Below, one piece after another: positions 3,001 to 45,215 of a stretch of DNA of 64,000 nt (positions within the stretch are counted from its first letter, which is position 1; every line of letters begins with the position of its first letter). Position numbers and translations under genes: made by a program. The notes beneath the pieces are model-generated. The model saw nothing but the letters and a program-made list of their open reading frames with translations, did no database searches and was not told the origin of the DNA. The stretch lies in the NCBI GenBank assembly GCA_965215125.1, contig OZ244052.1:192001-256000 (forward strand), read 5' to 3'. This DNA comes from an uncultured candidatus Porisulfidus sp. (GTDB lineage Bacteria; Pseudomonadota; Gammaproteobacteria; Poriferisulfidales; Oxydemutatoraceae).

Positions 3001-6000
3001 GGCAGTTGTTTTGGCTATACCGCTACTATTATTCGTCGGTATATCGGGGTTGATAGTCCTATTCCAGTAGCTATTATTCGCCGTAACAAAATACGGAATA
3101 ATCCCGCCGCGTTGACTACCTTGTACTCTACCGATAGCATAAGAATTAACAACTCTATCAAATTCGGTCAAAGGTAAATCACCGACTATGCCGCCGCTGC
3201 GTTGATGGCCGGTGACATCTACGGCTGCATAGCTATCGGTAATCGTAACGAGATTTAAGTAGCCAACCAATCCTCCCAGTCGATTAGAGCTATCGTTCCT
3301 TTGTGTTACAGTGCCTATGGCATAACTGTTGTTAATCGGAGCGTCGGTGGACCCGATCAAACCACCGACTCGATTATTTCCCATTAACTCGATCGTTGCA
3401 TAGCTGTTGATTAAGCCGCCTGTTCTATATAGGATACCGGCGATTCCTCCTATATATGCGTTGCCGACGATGCGACCCGATACCGAACTATTATTAATCT
3501 TGCCGCGACCGTTAGCTACTAAACCGGCAACCTGATTCCATCCCCGAACATTTACACTCGCCAGATTGACATAATTAATTTTAGAGTCTTCCGATATCGA
3601 GGCAAACAGGGCAACATCGTTTTGCTCACTTCTGTTTATAGATAGATTGGAGATCGTATAACCGTTGCCGTTGAATACAGTATTGAAATTTGCTATCGGT
3701 TGCCAATTTGCATAAGTACTCAAATCCACATCGTTTGCCAATTCATAACCTATACAAATATCGTCGGGGCATCCTCTGGTAGACTTGCTCCTATCCGCCG
3801 CTTCTCTAAAACCGGTGCCGTCGGTTTGATAACGGAGTGCCGATAATCCGTCGGGTGAACGAATATCTATATAGCCGTCGTCATCGCTATCTATATCGAT
3901 AGCAGTCAGGTCGGTGTAATAGTTTATTAAAATACCGTGTGAAACGAATGGTTTCTCGTCCACATGCAAGGCAACGACAATCTTCGCACCGTTATCCACC
4001 GGAACACCCGAAACGCGGCCACCGCTTGCCACCGCCGATTCGTAACCCGCATCGTTGCCGATAACGATAGTCGCCGTCGAGTGGGTTTTAGACAAAGTCG
4101 GAATTAGGGTGACGGTGGTCGTGCGATCATAAACCGTCAAAGTATAATCGTCTCTGAATAGACTGAGCTGCTCCGGAAATAGTAGCGAATCAAACGCTTC
4201 ACCGTCTATGTGCTCTATGATTTGCAAATCTACCAAACTCAGGTGTTGTCCGGATAACGATTCACCTTCGAAATCGCAGCGCACCCACTTTGTGGGAATA
4301 GAAATATCGCATAAATCGTTATTGTATTTGACTGCCGGATATTGTTCGGCATCACCGAAACTCCAGTTGTCGGTACTCCATTGATAATAAATTTCGGTGG
4401 CGGTACTGCCTGCCGTAGTCGGCATTTGTAGTGCTTCGGTGCTAACAGCCATCCTACCACCTGCGATGCCGCTGATGGTGCTATCCCAATAACTATTACC
4501 GAGCAAAGTACCATTAGAATTACCGATCAGCCCACCCAGCATAGTATTTCCTTGCACGATCGGAATTGCATAACTATTATTGATTTGAGCATCGCCATGA
4601 CCTCTGCCGACCAAACCACCCAACTCTCGGTCTCCGATTAGATTGCTTATCGCATAACTATCGTCTATTGAAGTCGTGCCGTTCATATTGCCGACCAAGC
4701 CCCCCACCAAACCGGTATCCGAAACTATCTCGGCAACCACATAACTATTCTTAATTTCGGATTTCTCGGATGTCATCGCTTCCAATGAACCGACCAAACC
4801 GCCGGCACTTCTATTAGCCGTCGCAATATCACCGGTCACGAAACTATTGCTTATTATCGAAGCATCGCTTGCTCGACCGACAAGCCCTCCGGTATCCCAC
4901 GCCCCGGTGATCTTTACATTCAATAAACCGACATAATCGATTATCGCTCCCGAAGTCCGAGAAAAAAATCCTATCGGAAATCCGCTCGTGTTATAAATAA
5001 ATAAATTAGAGATTGTGTAACCGTTGCCGTTGAAGATGCCCGTATAAGGTTGCGCGCCGGTACCCAAGGGAAGCCATCCTCCTCCGGTGGTCCAAGCTAT
5101 TTTATTAGCCCTACGAGTTATCGCATCACGATAACTGCTATCGTCCAGAAAATCCAAATTTTTGGTGAGCTCGTATCCTATACAACCACTTCCGGTGGCA
5201 CAACCGGTCGTGTCTTTGGGTTCTCCGGCGCGAATAACATAACCGCTACCGTCTAATTGAAAACGCATTCTATCCAAGTCTTCGAGACTGTGAACCTCTA
5301 TCAAACCATCGTTGTCGTCGTCTACATCCATTCCGTTGGGAATGCCGTCGCCGTCGCTATCCTGTACAACATTGATTTGATAGACCACCGAAATAGCGGT
5401 GCTTACGATAGCGGTACTTACGGTGATCGTAATCGTCGTATTGGACAATGTATCCAGGGGAATCGCTGCGCTTCGAATACCACTCTCGGCAGCGAGAGAA
5501 AAATCGGGATCCGCCGAGCTCGTGATATTAATGCTCGCCGAGGCGGTACTGCTTAGCGTAGCGATCAAACTAATATCACTTATATCAAGAGAAGTATGCA
5601 GACTATAATTAAATACACTGCTCTCAAAATTCGGCTGCAAGTTCGCATCGCTCAAAGATAAATCCAGATCACTCAAAAAAGCGATATCGGCACCCCGATT
5701 AGGTCCGGTGACCAGTAGCGTATATGATTTTGTAGAAAAACCGTCACCCGAGGTCGATTTTATCTTAATATCGTTTATGTATTGATTGCCGTCTAAATTA
5801 ACCGCTTGACTCAAACTACCGATTCCTTCGCCGAAGGTGTCCGGGGTGCAGGTGCCGCAAGTTCCGGTAATGACTGCATTCTTGTGTGCCGCTTCCGCTT
5901 TGACTACGACATTTCCGGTAGAGATACGCACAATATAACTACCTTGCTCGCTGTCAAAACCTTTTACTAAATTGATCTCCGACTCGCTTTCGTATAACTC

Positions 6001-29812: not shown

Positions 29813-30566
29813 CTTTCCAGTATTCTTGTTTTAGCAAATAGACTACCGCCAATAAACCGAGCAAGAATAAAATAACCCAAATGCCGACACTTTGACGTTC
29901 CAGTTTTGCCGGCTCCGCCAGATAACTCAAAAAAGTAACTATGTCCCTGACCACTCTGTCGTACTCTTCCGCCGACAAAGTGCCGGGCTTGATCAATTCA
30001 AAATCGGCAATGATTTGTCTCTGGTTGCCGTTTTCATCGGTGATAGTCTCGTATACCGGCTTTTGCCAGCCTTGTAAATCCCACATTACATGCGGCATGG
30101 CAACATGCTGGAATATTGCGTTGTTGACTCCCATAGGGCGCGTGTCGTCCAAATAGAAAGCCTTGAGATAAGTATAGAGCCAGTCCTTGCCTCGTGCGCG
30201 AGAGACCAAGGTTAAGTCCGGCGGCACCGCGCCGAACCAACTACGCGCACCTGCGTCGGGCATCGACACCACCATCAAATCTCCGACTTTGCTGTCGGTG
30301 AATATAAAATCTTCTTTCACCAACTCTTCGCTCAACCCTAAATCGCGGCCGACCCATTTATAGCGCGCATAGCGAGAACTATGACAGCTTAAACAATAAT
30401 TGACAAAGTATTTTGCGCCGCGTTGTAGCGTGTTGCGGTTATGTATGTCTATTTCTATACTCTGCAACGGATACCCTTGCGAGACCGCTGCACCGACATT
30501 GGATGGCGTCGCCGGCAAAAATAGCACTGTCAATGCGACAAACGATAGACGAAAATGCCACCTCAT
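29799..30566 (-). CDS. petC: Cytochrome c1
   Basis: CLSCH, PPDLTL and MPHV motifs with a C-terminal TM. The ATG overlaps the petB stop (ATGA). Confidence 0.95.
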   Translation of the reverse strand: MRWHFRLSFVALTVLFLPATPSNVGAAVSQGYPLQSIEIDIHNRNTLQRGAKYFVNYCLSCHSSRYARYKWVGRDLGLSEELVKEDFIFTDSKVGDLMVVSMPDAGARSWFGAVPPDLTLVSRARGKDWLYTYLKAFYLDDTRPMGVNNAIFQHVAMPHVMWDLQGWQKPVYETITDENGNQRQIIADFELIKPGTLSAEEYDRVVRDIVTFLSYLAEPAKLERQSVGIWVILFLLGLLAVVYLLKQEYWKDVEK

Positions 30567-31972
30567 GCGTGCACTCTTTCGGGTTCGGGTTTGTCCTCCG
30601 ACCATTGAGTAAAACTTTTCATCGTCGGCAAAAGTAGTTGTATTGATAGATAAACTACCGGAATAAACCATGAATAGATAACTAACTCGGGGGTTTGGTC
30701 ATAGATCCTCTGCGCATCGTAAATGCTGATCAAGGCAACCCAAAATACCAGCCATCCCCTATTGAATAAATTAGAGCGCGGTTTGCTATGCATCCACAAT
30801 ATAAAGAAAAACAAAAAGTAAAGCTCGCTGAAGCGCACCGCCATCTCGGTGCGAAACGGGTTGACCGATAAGGTTCCCAAATAACCCAAGTAGATAAAAA
30901 CAACCACAAATACGGCAAGGTTGAGTTTATGCAAAACACTGCGATAGCGAACCGACTTAACCGGATTTTTATCTATCCACGGCATAAAGAATAAGATGAT
31001 AATAGACGCACCCATCGCCAGTACACCGTACCACGGGTCGGGGATCGCACGCAACACCGTATAGAAAGGTGTGAAATACCAAAGCGGTGATATATGCTCG
31101 GGTGTCACCAGAGGATTCGCCTCTATGAAGTTGTTATGCTCCAGAAAATAACCGCCCATCTCCGGGATATAAAATACGACGATAGAGAAAAACAGCAAGA
31201 ACACGACCAAACCGACGATATCCTTGACCGTGTAATAAGGATGAAACGGGATGCCGTCTACGGGCTTGCCGTCGGCAGCTTTGTTTTTCTTAATCTCAAT
31301 CCCATCGGGGTTGTTGGAACCTACCTCGTGGAGTGCAACGATATGCATGAAAACCAAACCTACCAGTATCAACGGAAATGCAATCACATGAAAAGCAAAA
31401 AAACGATTGAGCGTTGCATCCGACACAACATAGTCACCGCGTATCCAAATTGCCAAATCCTCACCGATATAAGGAATAGCCCCGAACAAATTGATGATGA
31501 CTTGCGCACCCCAATAAGACATCTGCCCCCACGGCAATAGATAACCCATGAACGCTTCCGCCATCAAAGCGACATAAATGAACATCCCGATAATCCACAG
31601 CAACTCACGCGGTTTTTTGAACGAACCATACAATAATGCACGAAACATATGCAGATAAATAACAATGAAAAATGCCGATGCGCCCGTGGAGTGCATATAG
31701 CGAATCAACCACCCCCACTCTACATCACGCATGATATATTCAACCGACGCAAAAGCACTCGCCGCATCGGGTTTGTAATGCATGGTTAGAAAAATACCGG
31801 TGAATATCTGTAGTACTAATATAAATAATGCAAGCGAACCGAAGAAATACCAAAAGTTAAAATTCTTGGGCGCATAATAACCGGCAAGATGGTCTTGCCA
31901 TATTTTACTCAGAGGGAAACGCTCGTCTATCCAACCCAAAAGACCGGTCGTCTTCTGCTCGGTCTGCTCCAT
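30563..31972 (-). CDS. petB: Cytochrome b
   Basis: RYMHSTGAS, GYLLPWGQMSYWG and PLWYF motifs. Confidence 0.97.
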   Translation of the reverse strand: MEQTEQKTTGLLGWIDERFPLSKIWQDHLAGYYAPKNFNFWYFFGSLALFILVLQIFTGIFLTMHYKPDAASAFASVEYIMRDVEWGWLIRYMHSTGASAFFIVIYLHMFRALLYGSFKKPRELLWIIGMFIYVALMAEAFMGYLLPWGQMSYWGAQVIINLFGAIPYIGEDLAIWIRGDYVVSDATLNRFFAFHVIAFPLILVGLVFMHIVALHEVGSNNPDGIEIKKNKAADGKPVDGIPFHPYYTVKDIVGLVVFLLFFSIVVFYIPEMGGYFLEHNNFIEANPLVTPEHISPLWYFTPFYTVLRAIPDPWYGVLAMGASIIILFFMPWIDKNPVKSVRYRSVLHKLNLAVFVVVFIYLGYLGTLSVNPFRTEMAVRFSELYFLFFFILWMHSKPRSNLFNRGWLVFWVALISIYDAQRIYDQTPELVIYSWFIPVVYLSIQLLLPTMKSFTQWSEDKPEPERVHA

Positions 31973-32578
31973 CTAAGCTTTCTCCTTTTCCGATTCGCCG
32001 ATGACAATCTTGTCGTCGGCAGCATAGCGATACGGTGGGACTTCCAAATTCTTAGGTGCCGGTACACCGCGATAAACACGCCCCGCCAAATCAAAACGCG
32101 AACCATGACATGCACAAAAGAAACCACCTTCCCATTTAGCACCCAAATCTTCCGGCGCAATATCGGGCCGGTAAGTCGGCGAACATCCGAGATGCGTGCA
32201 TATTCCGACCAATACCAAAAACTCCGGCTTGATCGATCTGTATTCGTTATGCGCATACTCCGGCTGCTGCGGCTGATCCGAATTGGGATCACGCAACTGT
32301 GGCTCCACATCCTTTAAGGTCTGCAACATCTTCTTGGTTCTGTTGACTATCCATATCGGCTTACCGCGCCACTCTTCACGCACCATCTCACCGGGCTCTA
32401 TCTTGCTTAAATCAACCTCAACAGGCGCACCCGCCGCTTGCGTTTTAGCACTGGGCTCCATAGACTTCACAAAAGGAACAGCCGTTGTGACTATTCCTAC
32501 TCCTCCTACTATCTGTGCACTGGAACTTAAGAAACGTCGACGCGTAACGTCAACTTTATCATCATCATCGGTAGGCAT
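31973..32578 (-). CDS. petA: Rieske iron-sulfur subunit of the bc1 complex
   Basis: Tat RRRFL signal, CTHLGC and CACHGS motifs. Confidence 0.97.
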   Translation of the reverse strand: MPTDDDDKVDVTRRRFLSSSAQIVGGVGIVTTAVPFVKSMEPSAKTQAAGAPVEVDLSKIEPGEMVREEWRGKPIWIVNRTKKMLQTLKDVEPQLRDPNSDQPQQPEYAHNEYRSIKPEFLVLVGICTHLGCSPTYRPDIAPEDLGAKWEGGFFCACHGSRFDLAGRVYRGVPAPKNLEVPPYRYAADDKIVIGESEKEKA

Positions 32579-32789
32579 TGTATGACTCTCTGTTTTTAAT
32601 GTTTATATCAATAACTCTTGGGGGGGGTTAGCTAAACCAGCCTACACATCGGTAGACCATCACACCATAATTAGTTAGGCGCAGTGGCAAATGTCAAAGC
32701 ACTTAACACCATATACTGGAGATTGCCACTGCTAGTTATATTAACTAATACGGGATTATAGCACAATAGCGGGCGAACTGCATATATTC

Positions 32790-32991
32790 ATTCCCCTCCT
32801 TGTAGGAGCAGAATAGAGCCGCCGATTGAGCCAGTAGGTCAATCGGCAATTTTGATGTCCGCCCTTAGGGTGGCAAGCTCCGCCTGACGGGGTGGTTGCG
32901 TCGTGGGGCTGTTGGAAAAGTATCCACGAACTGTAGGGACGGTACATTCCCCTCCTTCGGAGGGGTGGCAGGCGCAGCCTGACGGGGTGGT
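32790..32991. repeat. Cluster of family B elements with a nested family A hairpin (32816-32847)
   Basis: TTCCCCTCC..., GCCGATTGA...TCAATCGGC, and two GCCTGACGGGGTGG copies. Confidence 0.7.
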
Positions 32992-33102
32992 TGCACCGGC
33001 ACGATTAACACATCCCCACCCTACTTTAGCAAACACTTCGGGTACACTCCCCAAACAATTTGCTATACTATTGCTACAAAAAAATTGGCAAGGTTCGGAA
33101 TA

Positions 33103-33267
33103 ATGAAATATAGTTTTATCATAATTTTTGCGTTAGCACTTGGAGGATGCACACCCTTTTATGATTTCAAATATCATGAAACAAATAGTAGCCCAGCCCG
33201 TGTGTGCTATAGTAAATATATCGCCGGCGAACCTATCGGAGATTTTTGCAAAAATAAAATTCATTAA
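33103..33267 (+). CDS. Small putative lipoprotein (54 aa)
   Basis: MKYSFIIIFALALGG-C lipobox and two further Cys. Confidence 0.55.
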   Translation: MKYSFIIIFALALGGCTPFYDFKYHETNSSPARVCYSKYIAGEPIGDFCKNKIH

Positions 33268-33362
33268 AAGTTTTAGTTTCTGTTTCAGTCCCTAGGTGAG
33301 TTGTTATACTGTTGCTACTTTTTCAACAGCCCCATTTCCCTTTTCTACTTTGGTTTAGAGCG

Positions 33363-33466
33363 ACGCAACAAAAAAGCCGCCCGTAGGCGGCCTTTCGAAT
33401 GTTGCGTATATTCACACTTATTAATCCTGATACAAAAATCGTTAATGTGAAATCCCTAATTCAATT
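33363..33466 (-). ncRNA. Predicted tracrRNA
   Basis: Minus strand reads ATTGAATTAGGG-[20 nt]-GTATCAGGA-TTAAT, complementary to the crRNA repeat GTTGTCCTGATACCCCCTAATTCAAT. It is followed by stem-loops and a U-tract and lies divergently upstream of cas9. Confidence 0.8.
33370..33391 (-). terminator. Intrinsic terminator at the tracrRNA 3' end
   Basis: Minus strand GCCGCC-TACG-GGCGGC-TTTTTT. Confidence 0.8.
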
Positions 33467-33471
33467 TTTCC

Positions 33472-33500
33472 AGCGTAGCACACCTTGAATTAAAAAGCAA
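33472..33500 (-). promoter_or_regulatory. Putative sigma70 promoter for tracrRNA
   Basis: Minus strand TTGCTT-17 bp-TACGCT with an extended TG, about 6 nt upstream of the anti-repeat. Confidence 0.55.
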
Positions 33501-33570
33501 TTTTTCTTTGCGATTTAGCATGTAACCGTATTTATAGTTATAATAGCAGGTTTCATAAATGGATAACCAA

Positions 33571-33579
33571 TAAGGAGGT
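33571..33579 (+). promoter_or_regulatory. Ribosome-binding site of cas9
   Basis: TAAGGAGGT, 8 nt before the ATG at 33588. Confidence 0.8.
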
Positions 33580-33587
33580 ATATCGTC

Positions 33588-36500
33588 ATGGGAATTAAAT
33601 ATCGCTTAGGGCTGGATGTCGGTGCCAATTCACTCGGCTGGAGTGTGCTGAAACTAGACACGGATGATAAACCTTATAAAATAGAAAATGCCGGTGCACG
33701 CATTTTCTCCGACGGACGAGAACCTAAAGGTCATAGTACCTTGAAGGCAGTCAGGAGAACAGCACGATCTGCCCGCCGAAATAGAGACAGATTCAAACAG
33801 CGACAAACGTATCTGATAAAGGAACTGGAAAAAGCTAAATTGTTTCCGCCGGAATCCGATACTGCGACGCGCCATGCTATACAAAAACTTGACCCTTTAG
33901 AATTGCGGGCTAATGCGCTGCATGAAAAGCTAGACCCCTACCATATAGGTCGTGCATTATTTCATATAAATCAACGTCGCGGTTTTAAGAGCAACCGCAA
34001 AGACACCAGCAAAGAAACTAGGAGCGGTAAGGTCAGTAAATCCGTGATGGCACTATTCAAGAAAATGGGTTTAGTCCAACAAAGTTCTATCCTCGATGAA
34101 CCAGAAAAGCTCTCTGAAGAACAAAAAAAATGGATCCGACAAGAGGAAGCCAAACAAAAGAAAGAAGCGATCACTAAATTAAAAGATTCAGATATTACTT
34201 TCGGTTCGTTTTTGTGGGAACGACGCAAACAGAACCCGCCACAGGCAACCCGTGCTCGTCCCAACGTAGATGGCAAGTTATACGATCTTTATCCGACCCG
34301 AGATCTATTAGAAGACGAATTTGACAAAATCTGTGCTAAACAACAAAAATATCACCCAAAACTTTTAAGCGCGGAAGTCGTCAAACATTTGAGAAAAATT
34401 ATATTTTATCAGCGACCCTTGAAACCCCAAGAGCGCGGCAAATGTGCTTATATGTATAAGGCAGGAGAACTCCGCGCTTTCCGAGCAATGCCGAGCTTTC
34501 AACGCTATCGCATCTATCAAGAAGTTAATAACTTGGAATGGGCCGGTCCGAGACAACCATATCGTTTGAGAGATTACCCCGAAGCAAGGGATGCCGTCGT
34601 GACACTATTAGAGAAACCTACTACTAAAAAAGGCAATGTCACCTTTACTAAAATTAAGAACGTACTTAAAGATCTAGGAGTCGCAGAAGGCGAGTTCAAA
34701 TTAAATTACGAAACCTTGAAAAGAAAAAAAACAAAAAGTAAAAAAAACGAAAAGCAAAAAAAAGACTCGTCAGGTTTGGACGGCAATCTCACCTCTAATA
34801 TTATGCAAAAAGAGGATTGCATCGGAGCGCAATGGCATGATTGGCCCGTAGAAAAACAAGACTCATTCGTTGAATTGATATTAAATGACAAACTCAGCGA
34901 TGCGGAAGTCCGAGATAAGCTAATGAAAGAATACGAACTCTCTCAGGAAGTAGCTACAGTTTGTCTTGAGGCGCACTTGAAAGAAGGCACGGCTCACCTA
35001 TCCTTAAAAGCTGCCAAATTGCTCACGGAAAAAATGAAAAATGAATATTGTGTGCAATCCAAAGCAGTGGAGCGTGTCTCGGAAGAGCACAACGACTTTG
35101 TTAGTCCACTTAGATCTACCGAAGAGGGAAAATTATTAGAGCGATTACCCTATTACGGAGAGTTTTTTCAAGATGGCAAACATATAATTGAGGGAACCCT
35201 AGATAGAGAAGATGAACACGATGCCTTAAAATTTTACGGAGGTGTGACCAACCCGACGGTACACATCGCCTTGAACCAAATCCGCAATGTAATCAATGAA
35301 CTGATAAAACGATATGGGAAGCCGTCCTCCATTGTCATTGAACTAGGTAGAGAGTTACCTGTCGGTGAAGAGGAACGTAAAGAAATAGAAAAAGAGCAGA
35401 AGGAGAATCAAACGAATAATGAAAGAATTGATACAGAACTTAAGGAACTCGGACAGTTTATAAATAGGGATAACAGAATCAGGTTTCGGCTTTGGGAAGA
35501 ATTAAACAAGGATCCTGCCGGACGCAAATGCCCATTTACAGGCAAAACCATCGGTATTCATGACATATTTAGTGATGAATTTGAAGTTGAACACCTTATC
35601 CCTTTTAGCAGATCATTAGATGATAGTTTCTCTAATAAAGTATTGTGCTCAACACAAGCAAACCGAGACAAAGGGCAAAAAACTCCATACGAAGCATTTG
35701 GCGACAGTCTCGGTGGTTACAGCTGGAATGAGATTTTTGAACGTTCTAAAAGGTTGCCCGATAGCAAGCAGTGGCGATTTGAAAAAGACGCTATGAAAAA
35801 GTGGCAACGCAACGAGTCCGATTTCCTAGCCCGGCATCTAAACGACACCCGATATATCGGCAGATTAACCAAAGATTATCTTAAAGCTATCTGTCCATAC
35901 AATGAGATTTATGTTGTCACCGGAAGATTGACTGCCCTTTTACGTGGTCATTGGGGGTTAAACAGTATCCTAAACGAGATACGAACCGATGAGGAACTTA
36001 AAAGGCTTGGACAAGAGGCTAGTAAAGATAATAGAGTTAGGTATTGGCTTTGGGAAGAATTAAACGAGGATCCCAATGGGCGTGAATGTCCCTTTACAGG
36101 GAAGACTATTATTAAAGATGACATATTTAGTGATGAATTTGAAATCGGATATCTCATTCCTGATAGTACATCAAAGGGCGACAGTTTCTCTAATAAAGTG
36201 TTATGTTCGACACAAGCAAACCAAGACAAAGGACAATGTACTCCATACGAGGCATTCGGTCATAGTCCTGACGATTACAACTGGAATAATATTCTGCAAC
36301 GCTCCGAAAGATTGCCTGAAAACAAGCAATGGCGATTTTTAGAAGACGCTATGGAAAAATGGCAGAGCAGAAATTTTGGTAGCAGCAGCTATAATAAAGC
36401 AAAGAAAAGCCGCGACGACCATAGGCATCATGCGATTGATGCCATTGTAATCGGAATGACTACGAGAAGTATCTTGCAACAAGTAGCAACGGCTGCCAAC

Positions 36501-37406
36501 CAATCCGAGGAGTTAAACCTTCCGTATTTATTTAATAAAAAAGAAAATGGTAAAAGCGCAATTGATCCATGGCTCGGATTTCGTGCAGATGTGAAAAACA
36601 TAATAGATAATATCATCGTTTCTCATAGAAAAAGGAACAAACAGTTAGGACAAGGTAGCACAAAGTTAGGACGCGATAGCACAAGCGGACAGCTGCACAA
36701 TAGTACTGCTTATGGCATAGTGACAAAACATGATAATAAAGAGAGTACGGTTGTAGTGCGCCGATCTATAGACAATTTAGTAGGCAAAAAAGAGGGACGC
36801 AGGAAAAGACTGGAATCCATTTGCGACAATTATTTAAGAGAACAATTTTTAGATGCGTTTGATGGCAATGGCAAGGAGGGTGTGATGATTCTAGCTAAAC
36901 AGAAAAATATCAGAGGGTTGCGTTGTATTCAAAATTTATCAATCATTCCTATTAAGGATAAAGAAGGACGGGAATATAAGGCTTTTCACGGAGATAGCAA
37001 CTGGGGATACGAAATTTACGAATACCCGAAAGGACATAAAAAAGCAGGGAAATGGGTAGGATTTCCCATTTCTACTCATGATGCCAATCAAAAAAACTTT
37101 CAACCGGGTTTAACCTTGCGCCGCCGCCATCACCTTCATCCAACCGCTAAACTTGTAATGCGTTTGCATGTCAATGACTATGTGGAAATTATCGGAGAAG
37201 ATGGTACACCGCAAATCATGCGTCTACAGAAAATTTCAAAAGGCTTAGATTTTATTCCTCCTAACGAAGCAAATGTCGCTAAGCGAGTAAAGAATAAAGA
37301 ATTAAAGTTCTTTAATAAGTCAGGCGGTAGCCTACAAAAGCTAAAAAGTCGTAAAATACATATTAGCCCGACAGGGCTTAAAAATTACGATGGCAATTGT
37401 AGCTAA
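33588..37406 (+). CDS. cas9: Type II-C Cas9 with an internally duplicated HNH domain
   Basis: RuvC-I YRLGLDVGANSLGW, Arg-rich bridge helix, QRRGFKSNRK, NPTVHIALNQ/IVIELGRE (RuvC-II), HNH EVEHLIPFSRSLDDSFSNKVL, RuvC-III RDDHRHHAIDA. A second HNH-like copy lies at aa 799-926. Confidence 0.97.
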   Translation: MGIKYRLGLDVGANSLGWSVLKLDTDDKPYKIENAGARIFSDGREPKGHSTLKAVRRTARSARRNRDRFKQRQTYLIKELEKAKLFPPESDTATRHAIQKLDPLELRANALHEKLDPYHIGRALFHINQRRGFKSNRKDTSKETRSGKVSKSVMALFKKMGLVQQSSILDEPEKLSEEQKKWIRQEEAKQKKEAITKLKDSDITFGSFLWERRKQNPPQATRARPNVDGKLYDLYPTRDLLEDEFDKICAKQQKYHPKLLSAEVVKHLRKIIFYQRPLKPQERGKCAYMYKAGELRAFRAMPSFQRYRIYQEVNNLEWAGPRQPYRLRDYPEARDAVVTLLEKPTTKKGNVTFTKIKNVLKDLGVAEGEFKLNYETLKRKKTKSKKNEKQKKDSSGLDGNLTSNIMQKEDCIGAQWHDWPVEKQDSFVELILNDKLSDAEVRDKLMKEYELSQEVATVCLEAHLKEGTAHLSLKAAKLLTEKMKNEYCVQSKAVERVSEEHNDFVSPLRSTEEGKLLERLPYYGEFFQDGKHIIEGTLDREDEHDALKFYGGVTNPTVHIALNQIRNVINELIKRYGKPSSIVIELGRELPVGEEERKEIEKEQKENQTNNERIDTELKELGQFINRDNRIRFRLWEELNKDPAGRKCPFTGKTIGIHDIFSDEFEVEHLIPFSRSLDDSFSNKVLCSTQANRDKGQKTPYEAFGDSLGGYSWNEIFERSKRLPDSKQWRFEKDAMKKWQRNESDFLARHLNDTRYIGRLTKDYLKAICPYNEIYVVTGRLTALLRGHWGLNSILNEIRTDEELKRLGQEASKDNRVRYWLWEELNEDPNGRECPFTGKTIIKDDIFSDEFEIGYLIPDSTSKGDSFSNKVLCSTQANQDKGQCTPYEAFGHSPDDYNWNNILQRSERLPENKQWRFLEDAMEKWQSRNFGSSSYNKAKKSRDDHRHHAIDAIVIGMTTRSILQQVATAANQSEELNLPYLFNKKENGKSAIDPWLGFRADVKNIIDNIIVSHRKRNKQLGQGSTKLGRDSTSGQLHNSTAYGIVTKHDNKESTVVVRRSIDNLVGKKEGRRKRLESICDNYLREQFLDAFDGNGKEGVMILAKQKNIRGLRCIQNLSIIPIKDKEGREYKAFHGDSNWGYEIYEYPKGHKKAGKWVGFPISTHDANQKNFQPGLTLRRRHHLHPTAKLVMRLHVNDYVEIIGEDGTPQIMRLQKISKGLDFIPPNEANVAKRVKNKELKFFNKSGGSLQKLKSRKIHISPTGLKNYDGNCS

Positions 37407-37435
37407 CACTCTACATTCAATAATCAATTTTTTGC

Positions 37436-38350
37436 ATGCCCGACCAAATCGTTGAAATTACGCAACCGGGTTATTGGTTGAGTAAGTCACGCGGATTTTT
37501 AGAAGTTCAAAGCAACGATGAAAACCAAATCGGTGGAAAGATACCATTAGATGATATTCTATCGGTTGTTATTTCTACTCCAGGATGTTCTCTATCAACC
37601 GTTCTCATAGATTACCTGAGTCGTCGCAATATCCCCATTACGATATGCGGAGCAAACTACCTACCCACAACACTTATCTTACCGATAGATGGTTACAATA
37701 GACAATTCCAAGTCATGCAAAGCCAAACCGATTTATCGGCACCGCGCCGGAAGCGCGCATGGCAAGCTATAGTCAGAGCTAAAATACAAAATCAAGCCGA
37801 TTTACTGGAGTTTGTCGGCAAAAATAATATGCAATTAAAACGCTTAATCTCAAATGTGAAATCCGGCGATGTGGATAATTGCGAAGCTCAAGCAGCACGC
37901 ATTTATTGGCAAAGTTTGTTCGGCGAAGATTTTCGTCGTGACCGCACTGCCACAGATTTGAATACTCCGCTCAACTATATTTACACGGTTATTAGAGCGT
38001 GTATTGCTCGCGGGATTAGCAGTGCAGGATTACATCCTACATTCAGCATACACCATAAAAATCCACAAAATGCATTCAACCTCGCCGATGATTTGATTGA
38101 ACCCTATCGCCCTATTGCCGATTGCTTTGTTTGGAAAAAATATTTCAATAAATTTGATCGACTGACCCCCGAAGTAAAAGCATCTTTAACAAGCATCGTA
38201 AATCTACAAATCCCTGTAGGAGACGAAGTATCCCCTTTATCGTTGGCTGCCATTAAGACATGCCGTTCTTTCGCAAGCTATTGCCTCAATGAAGCAACAA
38301 ATATCTTACTTCCTAAGCTACCTATGTCTTTAGAAATAGGGGCTTTATGA
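37436..38350 (+). CDS. cas1: Type II Cas1
   Basis: SGD..NCEAQAARIYW, LNY.Y and HH....NAFNLADDLIEPYRP motifs. Confidence 0.96.
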   Translation: MPDQIVEITQPGYWLSKSRGFLEVQSNDENQIGGKIPLDDILSVVISTPGCSLSTVLIDYLSRRNIPITICGANYLPTTLILPIDGYNRQFQVMQSQTDLSAPRRKRAWQAIVRAKIQNQADLLEFVGKNNMQLKRLISNVKSGDVDNCEAQAARIYWQSLFGEDFRRDRTATDLNTPLNYIYTVIRACIARGISSAGLHPTFSIHHKNPQNAFNLADDLIEPYRPIADCFVWKKYFNKFDRLTPEVKASLTSIVNLQIPVGDEVSPLSLAAIKTCRSFASYCLNEATNILLPKLPMSLEIGAL

Positions 38351-38691
38351 GTAGTAACCAAAACCATCTAAGCCCGTATCGCATTATGTGGTTATTTGTA
38401 ATGTTTGACTTGCCGGTAGGCACTAAAAAAGAGAGAGAGCAGGCAACAAAATTTCGTCAAGGGCTTCTTGATTTAGGGTTTGAAATGTCACAATTTTCGG
38501 TATACTTAAAATACTGTCCATCAAAAGAAAAATCGGAAGTAGTTAGTGACAAAGTCAAAGTTAAAATTCCGATTGGAGGTAAAGTAGATATTCTGATGAT
38601 AACCGATAAACAGTTTTCAGGCATGAAAAGATTTTATGCAAAAATCGAAATTAAAAGCAGTGCAAAACCGAAGCAGTTACATATCTTTTGA
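38347..38691 (+). CDS. cas2: Cas2
   Basis: YRIMWLFVMFDLPV, GFEMSQFSVY and ITDKQF motifs. No csn2 or cas4 follows, which indicates subtype II-C. Confidence 0.96.
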   Translation: MSSNQNHLSPYRIMWLFVMFDLPVGTKKEREQATKFRQGLLDLGFEMSQFSVYLKYCPSKEKSEVVSDKVKVKIPIGGKVDILMITDKQFSGMKRFYAKIEIKSSAKPKQLHIF

Positions 38692-38752
38692 TTATTTTTT
38701 TCTACGCAATATAGAAAAAAGTATCATCACAATAACTGCTTCGGCGTTGTCT

Positions 38753-39632
38753 GATTATACCATTGAATTAGGGGGTATCAGGACAACGTACATTGTGATG
38801 ACCTTGTCAAAAAAAAGGATTATACCATTGAATTAGGGGGTATCAGGACAACTCATAATCATCATCAAACAAACTATCGTCTGATTATACCATTGAATTA
38901 GGGGGTATCAGGACAACTGTGTAATAGTTATTAGCGAGATGCTCGTAGATTATACCATTGAATTAGGGGGTATCAGGACAACGCCTGGGTCATTATATAT
39001 CTAAGGAGATTAGATTATACCATTGAATTAGGGGGTATCAGGACAACCTAAATAGACCGGTAGTAAGCGGCGATCAGGATTATACCATTGAATTAGGGGG
39101 TATCAGGACAACACTATGACCCAGCTTTTGATTCACCTGATAGATTATACCATTGAATTAGGGGGTATCAGGACAACTATTTGTTGGAATGACTGGGTTG
39201 AGTTTATGATTATACCATTGAATTAGGGGGTATCAGGACAACTAGAAGGAGACGTTCAACTAGACGTACCTAGATTATACCATTGAATTAGGGGGTATCA
39301 GGACAACTTATCAACTTCAACTTCAACTTCAACGCCAGATTATACCATTGAATTAGGGGGTATCAGGACAACTATATTTTACTTCTTTGCATATGATAAC
39401 TCGATTATACCATTGAATTAGGGGGTATCAGGACAACTTGGTGAGCCTTCTCGTGCAAACTATTTTAGATTATACCATTGAATTAGGGGGTATCAGGACA
39501 ACTTATCAACTTCAATATCAACATCAACGCCAGATTATACCATTGAATTAGGGGGTATCAGGACAACTCCTTGCGCGCCATTAAGAACAGGGGGATTGAT
39601 TATACCATTGAATTAGGGGGTATCAGGACAAC
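38753..39632 (-). CRISPR. CRISPR array part 1 (repeats 1-14)
   Basis: Invariant 35-nt repeat GATTATACCATTGAATTAGGGGGTATCAGGACAAC every 65 nt with 30-nt spacers. Orientation inferred from the GTT start and tracrRNA complementarity. Confidence 0.98.
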
Positions 39633-39701
39633 AAACTGACCTTCCCCCATTTTCAGGGCCAAAACTTAAATGAGATCTGTATTATAAGTCACCTCTGTGC
39701 C

Positions 39702-39914
39702 TTATGCTAATAAAATCTTAAATAAAGCTAGATTTCCAAGCTCGCATTCCAATATGGGTTGGTTATTCTCGTTCAGTGGCAATTTAGACAAAATCCTATG
39801 TTGTTGCCTAAATTGAAGTCTTGCAACTAAAAAACCAGCCTCATAATGCGCCTTTAAGCGACGATCTCTAGTCGAGATGACCTCTACTAGCTGCTGATTT
39901 TTAGCTCGTTTCAT
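39702..39914 (-). CDS. Possible 70-aa passenger ORF within the IS
   Basis: ATG-started ORF between the transposase stop and the IS end. No recognisable motif. Confidence 0.3.
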   Translation of the reverse strand: MKRAKNQQLVEVISTRDRRLKAHYEAGFLVARLQFRQQHRILSKLPLNENNQPILECELGNLALFKILLA

Positions 39915-39935
39915 AACTACTAAACAAGCCTTACG

Positions 39936-40754
39936 CTACGCAACACGTGTGGCGAATGCTACCGGGGTCATATAATCTAATGAGCTATGCGGGCGTTCAT
40001 GGTTATAGTGGTATCGCCACTGTTCAATAATATGACGCACTTCCTGAAGGCTGCGGAACCAGTGCTGGTTAAGGCAATTGTCTCTAAACTTACCGTTCAG
40101 GCTTTCCACCAAAGCATTCTGGGTCGGTTTACCCGGTTGAATAAAGTATAGTTCCACGCCGCTATCTTGCGACCAGACCTGCATCTTTTTACTAGTGAAC
40201 TCCGGCCCGTTGTCGCAGACGATGCTTTGCGGACAACCTCGCTCGGCGATGAGTTGCTCTAAACATCTCACCACTTGCCCACTGCTAATCGAAAAACCAG
40301 CGAATTGACCGATCAGTTCGCGACTGTAATCGTCCATCACATTGAATATCCTAAACGACCTGCCGTCGCTTAACCGATCATGCACAAAGTCCATTGACCA
40401 GCGACAATTCACCTGTTCAGGCAATGCCTGCCGTTGCCTCGTGCGGATGAGCTTCTTGCGCAGTCTTTTGGGTACTTGCAGTCTCGCTTCTTTGTAGATG
40501 CGGTGAACCCGTTTTTTATTCACTACAAAGCCTGCCTCTCGTAGCAAACGGTAGAGTAGCAAATAGCCATAGCGTGGATACTTGCTTGCCAACTCGCACA
40601 AGCGACTTCTAATCTCTGCATCACAACGCGGCTGTGTTCGATAGTGATAACTACTACGGCTTATCCCGACCAGCTCGCAACTGCGCCTCTCACTCAAACT
40701 CCAATGGGTATTCAGCTCTGCAACAACGCTTCTTTTGCTTGCCGGGGTCACCAC
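39936..40754 (-). CDS. IS3 OrfB (DDE integrase core)
   Basis: WSMDFVHD, CDNGPEF, PGKPTQNALVESLNGKFR and YNHERPHSSL motifs. Confidence 0.95.
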   Translation of the reverse strand: MVTPASKRSVVAELNTHWSLSERRSCELVGISRSSYHYRTQPRCDAEIRSRLCELASKYPRYGYLLLYRLLREAGFVVNKKRVHRIYKEARLQVPKRLRKKLIRTRQRQALPEQVNCRWSMDFVHDRLSDGRSFRIFNVMDDYSRELIGQFAGFSISSGQVVRCLEQLIAERGCPQSIVCDNGPEFTSKKMQVWSQDSGVELYFIQPGKPTQNALVESLNGKFRDNCLNQHWFRSLQEVRHIIEQWRYHYNHERPHSSLDYMTPVAFATRVA

Positions 40755-41011
40755 TTTTTTGATAGCACATCCTTGAGGGCGGTGATTTCTAATAGTTGCT
40801 CGCCGAGTAGTTTCTTGAGTCGGTTATTCTCCGATACAAGGTTCTTTAATCGCTTGGCATCATTGACTTCTAACCCGGCATATTTGCTACGCCAGTTGTA
40901 AAAGGTGCCATGCGCTATACCGAGTTCTCGGCAAATGTCCTCTGTGCTGCGACCTGCCTCGTGCGATTTGATCGCACCGATAATTTGCTCTTCTGTATAT
41001 CGTTTATTCAT
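40748..41011 (-). CDS. IS3 OrfA (HTH) with -1 frameshift signal A6G at the orfA/orfB overlap
   Basis: KRYTEEQII...CRELGI...TFYNWRSKY...LSKKW, with AAAAAAGTGGTGA at the junction. Confidence 0.93.
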   Translation of the reverse strand: MNKRYTEEQIIGAIKSHEAGRSTEDICRELGIAHGTFYNWRSKYAGLEVNDAKRLKNLVSENNRLKKLLGEQLLEITALKDVLSKKW

Positions 41012-41118
41012 TTTGAAACCTCCTGTTGTTTACTAATTTAACTGGAAATCTCATCTTTGTCATGGCCCAGTTTTGGGGGGTAAGGTCAAAACCCCGACAA
41101 GACCAACCGTAAGCCTAA

Positions 41119-43168
41119 GATTATACCATTGAATTAGGGGGTATCAGGACAACTAGTGTTGCTGAACTAATGCTTGCTTGAGAGATTATACCATTGAATT
41201 AGGGGGTATCAGGACAACTTGCGGATAAAATTGTCTTCACAACTTGAAGATTATACCATTGAATTAGGGGGTATCAGGACAACTCGACCTCAATCGTAAC
41301 ATCAACACCATGCGATTATACCATTGAATTAGGGGGTATCAGGACAACTTCCAATATCGTACCTTGCGCTGCAGCTGCGATTATACCATTGAATTAGGGG
41401 GTATCAGGACAACTTGCTTCAATATAGCTATATAAGCATATGCGATTATACCATTGAATTAGGGGGTATCAGGACAACGAACAGCACCGACCGCCGGTCT
41501 AAATCTAGGATTATACCATTGAATTAGGGGGTATCAGGACAACGTGCATTGTGATGACCTTGTGAAAAAAAAGGATTATACCATTGAATTAGGGGGTATC
41601 AGGACAACTATTCTTTATCGTAGTTAGGCGGATATAATGATTATACCATTGAATTAGGGGGTATCAGGACAACTACAGTACAGTTGGCTGTATTAAATGA
41701 TTGGGATTATACCATTGAATTAGGGGGTATCAGGACAACTTTCGTGCCTATAAAGTGATATGGAATGAGGATTATACCATTGAATTAGGGGGTATCAGGA
41801 CAACGTAGGCGCCGTGCTTATTGGACGCGTTCCAGATTATACCATTGAATTAGGGGGTATCAGGACAACGTTTGGAAGTATGGTTTTGTTTATTTTAAGG
41901 ATTATACCATTGAATTAGGGGGTATCAGGACAACATATGGGTCCACTCGCCCCTTGCACATTCCGATTATACCATTGAATTAGGGGGTATCAGGACAACG
42001 GCGATAGTCTTTACTCTATTTTCGGTGCAGATTATACCATTGAATTAGGGGGTATCAGGACAACAATGGGACCGCCTGCAGATAAAGACGGTATGATTAT
42101 ACCATTGAATTAGGGGGTATCAGGACAACAATCTAAAATTATTTCCAATGTTTCACATGGATTATACCATTGAATTAGGGGGTATCAGGACAACTAATAA
42201 CGTCTCGATTCGTGATGTATATGCGATTATACCATTGAATTAGGGGGTATCAGGACAACAAACGGCTCCATGTCCCATAAAATTATAAGGATTATACCAT
42301 TGAATTAGGGGGTATCAGGACAACCAAGTTACGGTTACTAATCTATCTCAACATGATTATACCATTGAATTAGGGGGTATCAGGACAACGCGTGGGTCAT
42401 TATATATCTAAGGAGATTAGATTATACCATTGAATTAGGGGGTATCAGGACAACATGACCCCTATTCCGCCTTCCGCTGTTGCTGATTATACCATTGAAT
42501 TAGGGGGTATCAGGACAACTGCGGGCGCAAAGCCAGTATTTTAGACTCCGATTATACCATTGAATTAGGGGGTATCAGGACAACTAATAACGTCTCGATT
42601 CGTGATGTATATGCGATTATACCATTGAATTAGGGGGTATCAGGACAACTCGGCGGTACTGATCTCGGTTCATCGGTTTAGATTATACCATTGAATTAGG
42701 GGGTATCAGGACAACTTTCACTAATAAGCGTAATTTCAACGAGTTGATTATACCATTGAATTAGGGGGTATCAGGACAACGTTATCGGCGAGATATTCAT
42801 AACATTCGTCGATTATACCATTGAATTAGGGGGTATCAGGACAACATAACAATTATACATGGCGTTACAAGCAAAAGATTATACCATTGAATTAGGGGGT
42901 ATCAGGACAACTCGTCGACGACGGCAATTACATCAAGAGAAGATTATACCATTGAATTAGGGGGTATCAGGACAACTTCGTCTTATACCGCCACTTATAC
43001 CCGTTAGATTATACCATTGAATTAGGGGGTATCAGGACAACATCTATCGTAACATTTTCATGAATAGTGTCGATTATACCATTGAATTAGGGGGTATCAG
43101 GACAACTTGTTTCTCTTTCTGCATAAGCGCAAAAAATGATTATACCATTGAATTAGGGGGTATCAGGA
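41119..43168 (-). CRISPR. CRISPR array part 2 (repeats 15-46, last repeat truncated by an IS)
   Basis: Same 35-nt repeat with 30-31-nt spacers. The final repeat stops at ...TATCAGGA, where the IS begins. Confidence 0.98.
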
Positions 43169-44399
43169 TGACGTTCTCCCCAAATTTAGTACCAATGTTA
43201 AAGTCAGTTTTTCCGATAAACTAGAGAAGTTAAAAACATTACAGGAGAACCTAACATGAAGAGAACCGCCGATTGAACCAGTGGGTCAATCGGCGTGACA
43301 CTGTGCAGAAACTTAATGTGGTCAAACGAAGCCGGCATGAAAGTAGTAGATATCTGTCGTGATCTAGGCATCGCCGAGAAAACATTTTATCGCTGGCGCA
43401 GAAAGTATAATGGCATGGAAGTATCGGAAGCCAGACGCCTGAAAGAGCCTGAAGCCGAGAACGGCAAGCTCAAGAAGCTATTGGCTGAATCGGTGATGAA
43501 GTGTGAAACACTAGAGGAGGTTTTATCAAAAAAGTGGTAAAGCCGGCGCAGCGCAAGCAGATTGTCAAAGATCTAGTGGGTGCGGGTCGGCATAGTGAAC
43601 GCACCGCTTGCGAGTTGATTGGTGTCAGTCGCAGTGCTTATCGCTATCAAGGCAAGCCAGCCGATAAAGATTGCCAACTGGAAGCCGCATTATCGGAGAA
43701 GGCAAAGCAGTATCCGCATTATGGCTATAAGATGCTGCATGCTCTACTAAAGTGCGAAGGCCGGGTCGTCAATGTGAAGCGCACCTATAGACTTTATAAG
43801 AAGCTCGGGCTTGGATTGAGAACCAAGAAGCACAACAAGCTGTGTCGTCCGCGTTGCGTGCCGACAACACCGACTAGAGTGAATGAGTGCTGGTCAATGG
43901 ACTTTGTGCATGACCAGCTCAGCGACGGCAGACGCTTTCGGGTATTGAACATAGTAGATAACTTCAGCCGTGAATGTGTCGGGCAGATTGTTGATGTTTC
44001 AATTACCGGCCAACGCGTAGCAAACTATCTATCCGAATTGATAGAACGGCTTGGTGCAAAGCCGACACGCATCGTCTGCGGCAATGGCACCGAGTTTAGA
44101 TGCAAGGCCATGTTCCACTGGAGCCGAGACCAGCAGGTGGAATTGGATTTTATTCAGCCCGGCAAACCGACCCAGAATACCTTTGTAGAAAGTTTCAACG
44201 GTAAGTTCCGAGACGGTTGCCTGAACCAGTTCTGGTTTCGTTGAATAAAATAAGCAAGAGAGACTATAGAAGCCTGGCGCATAGATTATAATGAAGTCCG
44301 TCCGCACAGCGCATTGGGGTATCAACCCCCGAGTGTATTTGCGGAGGCAATAGCATGAAAACTGACATTGCAAGTGGTCCTAAAAATGGGGTAACGTCA
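43169..44399 (+). mobile_element. Degenerate IS3-family element
   Basis: TGACGTT...AACGTCA termini with no target duplication. Confidence 0.9.
43256..44358 (+). pseudogene. Inactivated IS3 transposase (orfA/orfB)
   Basis: orfA ATG 43256 hits an in-frame TGA within a family A element. orfB has CGNG instead of catalytic CDNG and a stop at 44242-44244, with the RPHSALGY remnant continuing in frame to 44358. Confidence 0.88.
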
Positions 44400-44522
44400 T
44401 CAACAGCCCCACGACGCCACCCCGTCAGGCTACGCCTGCCACCCCTCCAAAGGAGGGAAATTAAATAGTGAAGGTTCGGCACAATGTCACGCCGATTGAC
44501 CTACCGGCTCAATCGGCGGTTC
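44400..44522. repeat. Family B element followed by family A hairpin
   Basis: CAACAGCCCCACGACG-CCACCCCGTCAGGC...CCCCTCCAAAGGAGGG, then AGGTTC...GCCGATTGA...TCAATCGGCGGTTC. Confidence 0.75.
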
Positions 44523-45215
44523 ATTCATCTGTAATAAATAAAAGAATACCGAAACGGCACCGGCGGCAAAAATCATACTCATAATGACGATTTGATAGCG
44601 GACTGCTATCAACGGAGAAACACCGGCAAGTATTTGCCCGGTCATCATTCCCGGCAAAGAGACTAAACCTACCGCAAAAAATAAATTGAGCGACGGTATC
44701 AGCGAGGTTTGCAGTGCGGTTTTACGCGCATCGACATAACCGACATTGTTTTTTATCTCAGTATCAAATCGTTCGGCGGCAAGGCTTACCGAATTCATTG
44801 CATTCGCATAAATCATACCGGCTAGCGGAATTAAATATTGCGGTGTCAACCAACGATCAAGTTCCAAAACAAATTCCAGCGTAAAAAATAAAATCAAGGT
44901 GCCGCTCAGTGCGATTGCCGATAAAGATTTAAGATACAGTCGGAAGTTTTTGTGCGCCAAAGGACGCAGAGAAATCCACGCCGACACCAGTATCATCACA
45001 CACAATACTACGATGAGAATAATGTCGTGCTCGGCGGCGAACAGATAATTCAATAGATAACCGACCAACATCAGTTGGAAAAGCATCCTGCCGAACGCGT
45101 ATAAAGTCGTGCGTATTCCTATAGACCACCAATAGAATATAATCACGCTGACCAGCATCGGAATAAAACTCAACGCCAAATTGAATAACGAGATATTAGG
45201 AATCGTATTGCTCAT
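44487..45215 (-). CDS. UPF0014 / FetB(YbbM)-like ABC permease
   Basis: RM..QL.LVGY.L, IPLAGMI..NAM, and VGLVSLPGMMTGQILAG..PLIAVRYQI motifs. Confidence 0.88.
   Translation of the reverse strand: MSNTIPNISLFNLALSFIPMLVSVIIFYWWSIGIRTTLYAFGRMLFQLMLVGYLLNYLFAAEHDIILIVVLCVMILVSAWISLRPLAHKNFRLYLKSLSAIALSGTLILFFTLEFVLELDRWLTPQYLIPLAGMIYANAMNSVSLAAERFDTEIKNNVGYVDARKTALQTSLIPSLNLFFAVGLVSLPGMMTGQILAGVSPLIAVRYQIVIMSMIFAAGAVSVFFYLLQMNEPPIEPVGQSA

Follow-up and report, generated by a model that had tools for sequence, protein, structure and literature searches.

In the genome under study (designated G000; one contig of 2.22 Mb), the sequence preceding a cas9 gene matches the CRISPR repeat in two blocks that lie much farther apart than they do in the repeat itself. 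This raises the question of whether the region specifies a tracrRNA and, if so, what role the intervening nucleotides might play. All coordinates given here, except those of named related loci, refer to the window, that is, the whole 64,000-nt stretch of DNA that was analysed. The original prediction described an anti-repeat split into a 9-nt block (33425-33433) and a 12-nt block (33454-33465) with 20 nt between them, which was exact to the nucleotide. Its statement that the same two blocks stand one base apart in the 35-nt repeat was likewise confirmed on the 46 repeat copies.

The genes and the array of the locus are arranged as follows:

33515-33544, plus strand: promoter-like site 5' of cas9, with 10/12 consensus matches.
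33588-37406, plus strand: cas9, 1272 aa, type II-C, with the Pfam domains HNH_4 (two stretches), RuvC_III and Cas9_a.
37436-38350 and 38347-38691, plus strand: cas1 and cas2, assigned by Pfam.
38753-43182, minus strand: CRISPR array of 46 repeats, with 35-nt repeats and 30-nt spacers.
~39634-41118, minus strand: IS3-family insertion sequence inside the CRISPR array, with two overlapping transposase ORFs.

Besides the CRISPR array, the locus contained cas9, cas1, and cas2 alone, with no ORF between cas2 and the array, which is the composition of type II-C. The insertion sequence cuts the array into 14 and 32 repeats, and all 46 repeats were identical except the outermost one. On the minus strand, the usual type II motif stands at the start of each repeat and an extended -10-like element at its end. 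The strand on which the tracrRNA terminator lies, together with the crRNA:tracrRNA pairing described below, indicates that the array is transcribed from the minus strand. The outermost repeat (43148-43182, cas2-distal) was degenerate at its cas-distal end and is the first repeat on the inferred transcription strand. In addition, the spacers of the pairs 38788/41544, 38983/42390, 39308/39503, and 42195/42585 were identical or 1-3 bases apart. Some of these near-identical pairs straddled the insertion sequence, and their presence points to duplication of array segments or to recurrent uptake of spacers from related targets.

The region upstream of cas9 could be divided into the following elements:

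33472-33480, minus strand: candidate extended -10 element of the tracrRNA promoter, recognised by eye; a similar element occurs in the relatives G003 and G001.
33370-33470, minus strand: tracrRNA, with anti-repeat, nexus, and terminator in canonical order; the 5' end probably lies at ~33465-33470 and the 3' end would be the U-tract near 33370.
33454-33465, minus strand: upper-stem half of the anti-repeat, an exact 12-nt match to the repeat forming 12 bp, paired in both the RNAduplex and the cofold predictions.
33434-33453, minus strand: 20-nt bulge on the tracrRNA side (the insert), unpaired in the predicted crRNA:tracrRNA duplex.
33423-33433, minus strand: lower-stem half of the anti-repeat, pairing over 10-11 bp with the repeat at its spacer-proximal end and including the exact 9-nt block.
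33404-33417, minus strand: nexus-like hairpin of 4-5 bp after a short A-rich linker, with its 5' strand at 33414-33417 (RNAfold, -2.8 kcal/mol).
33370-33395, minus strand: terminator hairpin and U-tract, an 11-bp G+C-rich hairpin (RNAfold) followed by six U.

Along the minus strand, the modules thus follow the order upper stem, bulge, lower stem, A-rich linker, small hairpin, linker, and terminator hairpin, and a 7-nt stretch beyond the tracrRNA 3' end, to 33363, could close an outer stem. The anti-repeat ends ~122-123 nt upstream of the cas9 start, in divergent orientation. RNAduplex predicted a crRNA:tracrRNA duplex of -29.6 kcal/mol with 22 core pairs. The consensus scans for promoters and terminators listed neither a minus-strand promoter of the tracrRNA nor its terminator; the absence of the latter from a simple scan is probably explained by the A-U extension of the hairpin, which consumes part of the U-tract. 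A search of the region 30000-45000 against Rfam, with E values up to 1, gave no family match save one unrelated chance match, which is no argument against a tracrRNA because these RNAs are too diverse. Thus, an anti-repeat outside the array, adjacency to cas9, a nexus following the lower stem, and a 3' Rho-independent terminator were all found, and, judged from its sequence, the minus-strand region 33370-33470 is a genuine tracrRNA of a type II-C cas9-cas1-cas2 locus. The divergent orientation relative to cas9 was observed in the window and in the other relatives; in one related locus, L045, the tracrRNA (465-569) also lies upstream of cas9 and on the same strand as this gene.

A better contiguous anti-repeat elsewhere in the genome, the finding that the original prediction had itself named as counting against it, was not detected anywhere in the 2.2 Mb. 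A blastn search of the whole genome, arrays excluded, found exact matches to the repeat of no more than 13 nt, and the 12-nt block of the anti-repeat was one of four 12-nt matches. An ungapped scan of the genome that tolerated G-U pairs, performed on both strands and with both repeat orientations, matched at most 28 of 35 positions, in hits scattered as noise. The genome-wide RNAduplex scan was made with minus-strand targets, while the plus strand was covered by blastn, by the ungapped scan, and by RNAduplex within the locus. Over the 36,933 minus-strand windows, the energies averaged -14.6 kcal/mol (SD 3.8), and the tracrRNA site ranked 69th, with -27.9 kcal/mol in the scan and -29.6 kcal/mol when fuller context was included. 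Within the 14-kb locus, the site gave the best duplex on either strand (-29.6 vs. -25.7 kcal/mol for the next one). Duplex energy alone does not single out the site; its position, colinearity, and homology do, since the 12-nt block is colinear with the 9-nt block, and the nexus-terminator module that comes next has homologues in the tracrRNAs of the relatives.

This 3' module of the tracrRNA was homologous in nine relatives. When the nexus and the terminator were considered together across 10 relatives, 95.7% of the cells were paired, vs. 28-53% with the partners slid; changes on both sides were found at 7 of the 12 pairs, and the covariation score was reached by none of 500 shuffles. For the nexus hairpin alone, 97.4% of the cells were paired in the 10 relatives, with one compensatory pair and two pairs varying on one side, and in the terminator six of eight pairs were compensatory in the same sample. 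The tracrRNA of the relative G456 (locus L112, ~2719-2792, minus strand) had a much enlarged nexus hairpin of ~7 bp. This fits the statement in the accessible text of PMC6546382 that the nexus is an insertion hot spot; it is the nexus, and not the bulge, that is so called there.

The length of the bulge was then compared among related loci. The nearest relatives by Cas9, G003 (90% identical) and G001 (83%), both possessed a 20-nt bulge on the tracrRNA side; in G001, the single base facing the bulge has been lost from the repeat, so that the bulge is purely one-sided. A contig scan of public genomes revealed no insert-bearing relatives beyond these two. Contigs of four public DNA runs contained the G000 allele in one case and the G003 allele in three, for which reason the known insert alleles number only three. 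A search of sequencing runs listed no RNA run that contains the locus. The metagenome scan yielded 50 related loci, the nearest of which was 54% identical. Further sampling took in all 53 genomes of the order, 400 genomes drawn from the class, and the orders to which three new hits belong; it yielded six more relatives (Cas9 48-57% identical), none with a 20-nt bulge. Eight distant relatives with Cas9 48-59% identical were available for comparison (G044, L045, G314, G282, G451, G456, G455, and G269), and the homologous bulge, where it could be read, had the following lengths:

G044: 4 nt.
G282: 4 nt.
G451: 4 nt.
G314: 10 nt.
L045: ~11 nt by a homology-guided reading; RNAduplex gave 4 nt and a poor lower stem.
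G456: ~8 nt, inferred without its repeat.

By eye, the repeat of G314 was the most similar to that of G000 and likewise left one crRNA base unpaired.

A broader survey comprised the window and 36 related loci with arrays. A duplex was regarded as credible at -36 kcal/mol or better, which gave 30 loci, some of them near-duplicates; the window, G003, and G001 are not part of this set, and the duplexes of another four loci were weaker and unreliable. In 29 of the 30 loci with a credible duplex, no tracrRNA-side loop within the first 20 repeat positions exceeded 6 nt, and the remaining one, L065, showed a 10-nt loop that is doubtful, being located inside a coding region. Some relatives did have loops of 13-25 nt, only in the distal part of the upper stem, beyond at least 21 uninterrupted base pairs. 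The point of the original prediction that the insertion is unusually large therefore held up: the 20-nt bulge far exceeds those of the relatives. The length of this bulge varies within the Cas9 subfamily, and 20 nt, its extreme, is conserved in a small clade.

Other readings of the insert itself were tried and rejected. As a repeated or mobile element, it shared only chance 12-mers with the rest of the genome. As a promoter, it was spanned by a weak plus-strand match (9/12), and no convincing internal promoter was seen by eye on the minus strand. Its pairing with the 3' tail of the repeat amounted to merely 4-5 bp by eye, which is at the level of chance.

The predicted hybrid was weak in the insert-bearing genomes, with -28 to -30 kcal/mol vs. 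-37 to -61 kcal/mol in the relatives; the median given for type II-C systems is -39.4 kcal/mol (PMC6546382; Faure et al. 2018). Together with an array broken by an insertion sequence, this energy might be taken to mean that the anti-repeat is decaying or non-functional and that the system is on its way out. However, the same architecture was found in three diverged genomes, G000, G003, and G001, all of which have intact cas9, cas1, and cas2. Moreover, the 44 spacers of G000 and the ~46 spacers of G003 had none in common, and the array has kept its repeats uniform up to the outermost one. Since the cas genes are intact and the spacer sets of G000 and G003 wholly different, the CRISPR-Cas9 system appears to be active in the lineages that carry the 20-nt-bulge tracrRNA, and decay seems to us highly improbable.

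The original prediction also proposed that the insert pairs with the nexus region and so forms a pseudoknot. The 6-nt complementarity on which this was based is present, insert positions 33446-33451 being the reverse complement of 33411-33416, and it forms part of a longer possible helix:

33412-33419, minus strand: proposed partner of the insert, forming 8 bp (one of them G-U) with 33444-33451 and overlapping the 5' strand and the loop of the nexus.

Because the partner overlaps the 5' strand of the nexus hairpin, the loop-nexus helix could form only in place of this hairpin. The resulting scaffold would be pseudoknotted: in the Cas9-bound dual RNA, the loop would be paired with this partner, and the new helix would run alongside the lower stem. 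By geometric reasoning, the lengths are compatible with such an arrangement, an 8-bp helix with a 10-nt return linker lying beside a stem of 10-11 bp. The loop-nexus helix also dominated the predicted ensemble of G000 when the anti-repeat was blocked, and the local nexus hairpin to be displaced was weak in the insert clade (G000, -2.8; G003, 0.0; G001, -0.5 kcal/mol; vs. -3.1 kcal/mol in the outgroups). In G000, the energy of the loop-partner duplex was -8.4 kcal/mol, which was borderline above chance (shuffle p 0.05 for the loop and 0.02 for the partner).

The comparison of alleles gave a different picture. The duplex decayed to -6.3 kcal/mol in G003 and -5.3 kcal/mol in G001 (shuffle p 0.06-0.27), and the covariation check across related loci that had been suggested for the helix was negative: none of the eight proposed pairs covaried among the three insert alleles, and four of the eight were unpaired in at least one sequence. 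In G314, with its 10-nt bulge, the loop-nexus pairing was absent (-1.5 kcal/mol, p 0.89). The bulge of L045 found its best match at the same partner site, with which it can form 9 bp (p 0.04 and 0.11), and one position of the helix was changed on both sides between L045 and G000, as judged by eye; when both L045 and G044 were considered, the compensatory positions likewise amounted to one, again by eye only. Part of the L045 complementarity, in addition, is sequence that belongs to the lower stem in G044. The partner site itself is the 5' strand of the nexus hairpin, which, as shown above, is kept paired with covariation in 10 relatives; according to the accessible text of PMC6546382, a nexus is present in every one of these guide RNAs, and Cas9 buries the lower stem. 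Compensatory changes that keep both crossing helices, by which a conserved pseudoknot would be recognised, were not observed. Thus, the proposal of a pseudoknotted scaffold was not borne out by the comparison, and we consider it quite unlikely.

The same complementarity might act in the free tracrRNA. There, the loop would pair with the 5' strand of the nexus and enclose the lower-stem anti-repeat in the loop of a hairpin, and this alternative fold would either stabilise the RNA or gate its pairing with the crRNA. The minimum free energy structure of the free G000 tracrRNA contains the loop-nexus helix, a helix joining these regions is retained in the RNAalifold consensus of the three alleles, and the folds predicted for the free tracrRNAs of G044 and L045 likewise pair the bulge region with the 5' strand of the nexus. 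However, the minimum free energy folds of G003 and G001 are different, and the loop of G001 pairs better with the 5' leader, which is possibly untranscribed; covariation was not seen for this fold either, and AU-rich sequences pair readily by chance. We therefore regard such a role of the free fold as doubtful. In G001 (L032, ~4008-4017, minus strand), the sequence just upstream of the anti-repeat, whose transcription would depend on the start site, showed a perfect complementarity of 8 bp to the start of the loop, which was not present in G000 or G003.

Co-evolution of the insertion with insertions in this Cas9 was another suggestion of the original prediction. Comparison of the Cas9 proteins revealed one extra segment:

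35973-36371, plus strand: extra 133-aa segment of Cas9 (residues 796-928), located between the HNH-RuvC linker and RuvC-III and representing a degenerate second copy of HNH.

This segment was 69% identical to the first HNH copy (region 35400-35972), with the position of the catalytic His replaced, and in the alignment it was missing from the Cas9 of G044. Two Pfam HNH_4 stretches were found in G000, G003, and G001 (3 of 11 related Cas9s) and one in the other eight. None of the best 150 of 1909 library representatives matched the extra segment twice, and no Cas9 with two HNH domains was encountered in the literature search. The enlarged loop could accordingly be imagined as a binding platform for the additional HNH-like domain, RNA and protein having co-evolved. 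The 20-nt bulge and the second HNH_4 stretch do occur together in all three genomes, and the second stretch is found in 0 of the 8 other relatives, none of whose readable bulges exceeds ~11 nt. However, the three genomes form one clade and so represent a single event; bulges of 10 and ~11 nt exist alongside single-HNH Cas9s; and the AF2 model of Cas9 residues 590-1000, which cover the extra segment, had a mean pLDDT of 48, too poor for a fold search. Co-occurrence of the two insertions therefore stands (3/3 vs. 0/8 relatives), but one shared event does not prove co-evolution, and a binding platform seems rather improbable.

A bolder combination of these ideas would be that the 20-nt loop now stands in for the 3' strand of the nexus, pairing 33444-33451 with 33412-33419 beside the lower stem. 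The product would be either a pseudoknotted scaffold read by the clade-unique, catalytically dead HNH-like domain or a switch that closes the free tracrRNA until the crRNA and Cas9 bind. We regard this combination as speculative and unlikely.

As the reasonably probable explanation, we propose instead that the tracrRNA is functional and that the loop is a lineage-specific enlargement of the bulge, most likely lacking a conserved base-paired partner. Two short helices would join the tracrRNA to each crRNA repeat, namely a guide-proximal lower stem of 10-11 bp and an upper stem of 12 bp, and the 20-nt loop would be located between them on the tracrRNA side, facing one unpaired crRNA base. Its place would be the normal position of the main bulge, which varies from 4 to 20 nt in this Cas9 subfamily and may have been extended in this lineage, and it would most likely extrude from the ribonucleoprotein without a conserved paired partner. 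In type II-C systems, promoters can be embedded in the repeats and processing by RNase III is dispensable (PMC5965381). With promoter-like elements borne by the repeats, crRNAs would probably be made here without cutting of a long duplex by RNase III; a promoter in each repeat would make this cutting dispensable, and a broken duplex would thereby be tolerable.

Scaffolds of guide RNAs set the compatibility between Cas9 and RNA as well as the design of single-guide RNAs. On the explanation preferred here, the locus would show a type II-C Cas9 that accepts a duplex in which a 20-nt loop separates two helices, each roughly one turn long. The series of bulges of 4, 10, ~11, and 20 nt marks the main bulge as tolerant of insertions, for example, of engineered aptamers or tags. 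Should the loop-nexus pairing be true, a Cas9 guide that does not belong to type II-D would contain a natural structural switch or a pseudoknot. A Cas9 with two HNH-type domains is a further offering of this clade.

In the accessible literature, pseudoknots of tracrRNAs are described only for the guides of Cas9d, IscB, and Cas12, and no description was found of a bulge this large at the position of the main bulge, although the supplementary tables of PMC6546382 may hold such cases. The literature search on large anti-repeat bulges and Cas9 returned one preprint, on a phage RNA. Many metagenomic tracrRNAs are stated to fold non-canonically (PMC10278012). The scaffolds of Cas9d (type II-D) and the omega RNA of IscB demonstrate that nucleases of the Cas9 family can use pseudoknotted scaffolds; however, as far as their published descriptions show, these scaffolds are different and larger and function with compact proteins, no homology with them was seen, and the pseudoknot considered here is without comparative support.

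Like the type II-C systems of Neisseria meningitidis and Campylobacter jejuni, the locus combines a cas9-cas1-cas2 operon with a neighbouring tracrRNA and a central bulge of the duplex, such as that of the Neisseria crRNA:tracrRNA duplex (PMC3737331). A promoter-like element ending each repeat is another shared trait, here predicted from sequence (PMC5965381). Unlike in these two species, the bulge comprises 20 nt on one strand and is flanked by helices of just 10-11 and 12 bp, and the Cas9 is only distantly related to theirs. With the general architecture of tracrRNAs, as outlined in the accessible text of PMC6546382, the RNA of G000 shares all modules in their canonical order, including the A-rich linker between the lower stem and the nexus, whereas its main bulge is much larger and its hybrid much weaker than the type II-C median given there. 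The nearest Cas9 relatives outside the insert clade, G044, G451, G282, G314, and L045 (Cas9 53-59% identical), have a homologous lower stem, linker, nexus, and terminator and a bulge at the same position with its first three bases identical; unlike the 20-nt bulge of the insert clade, however, their bulges measure 4 to ~11 nt, and their Cas9s are single-HNH.
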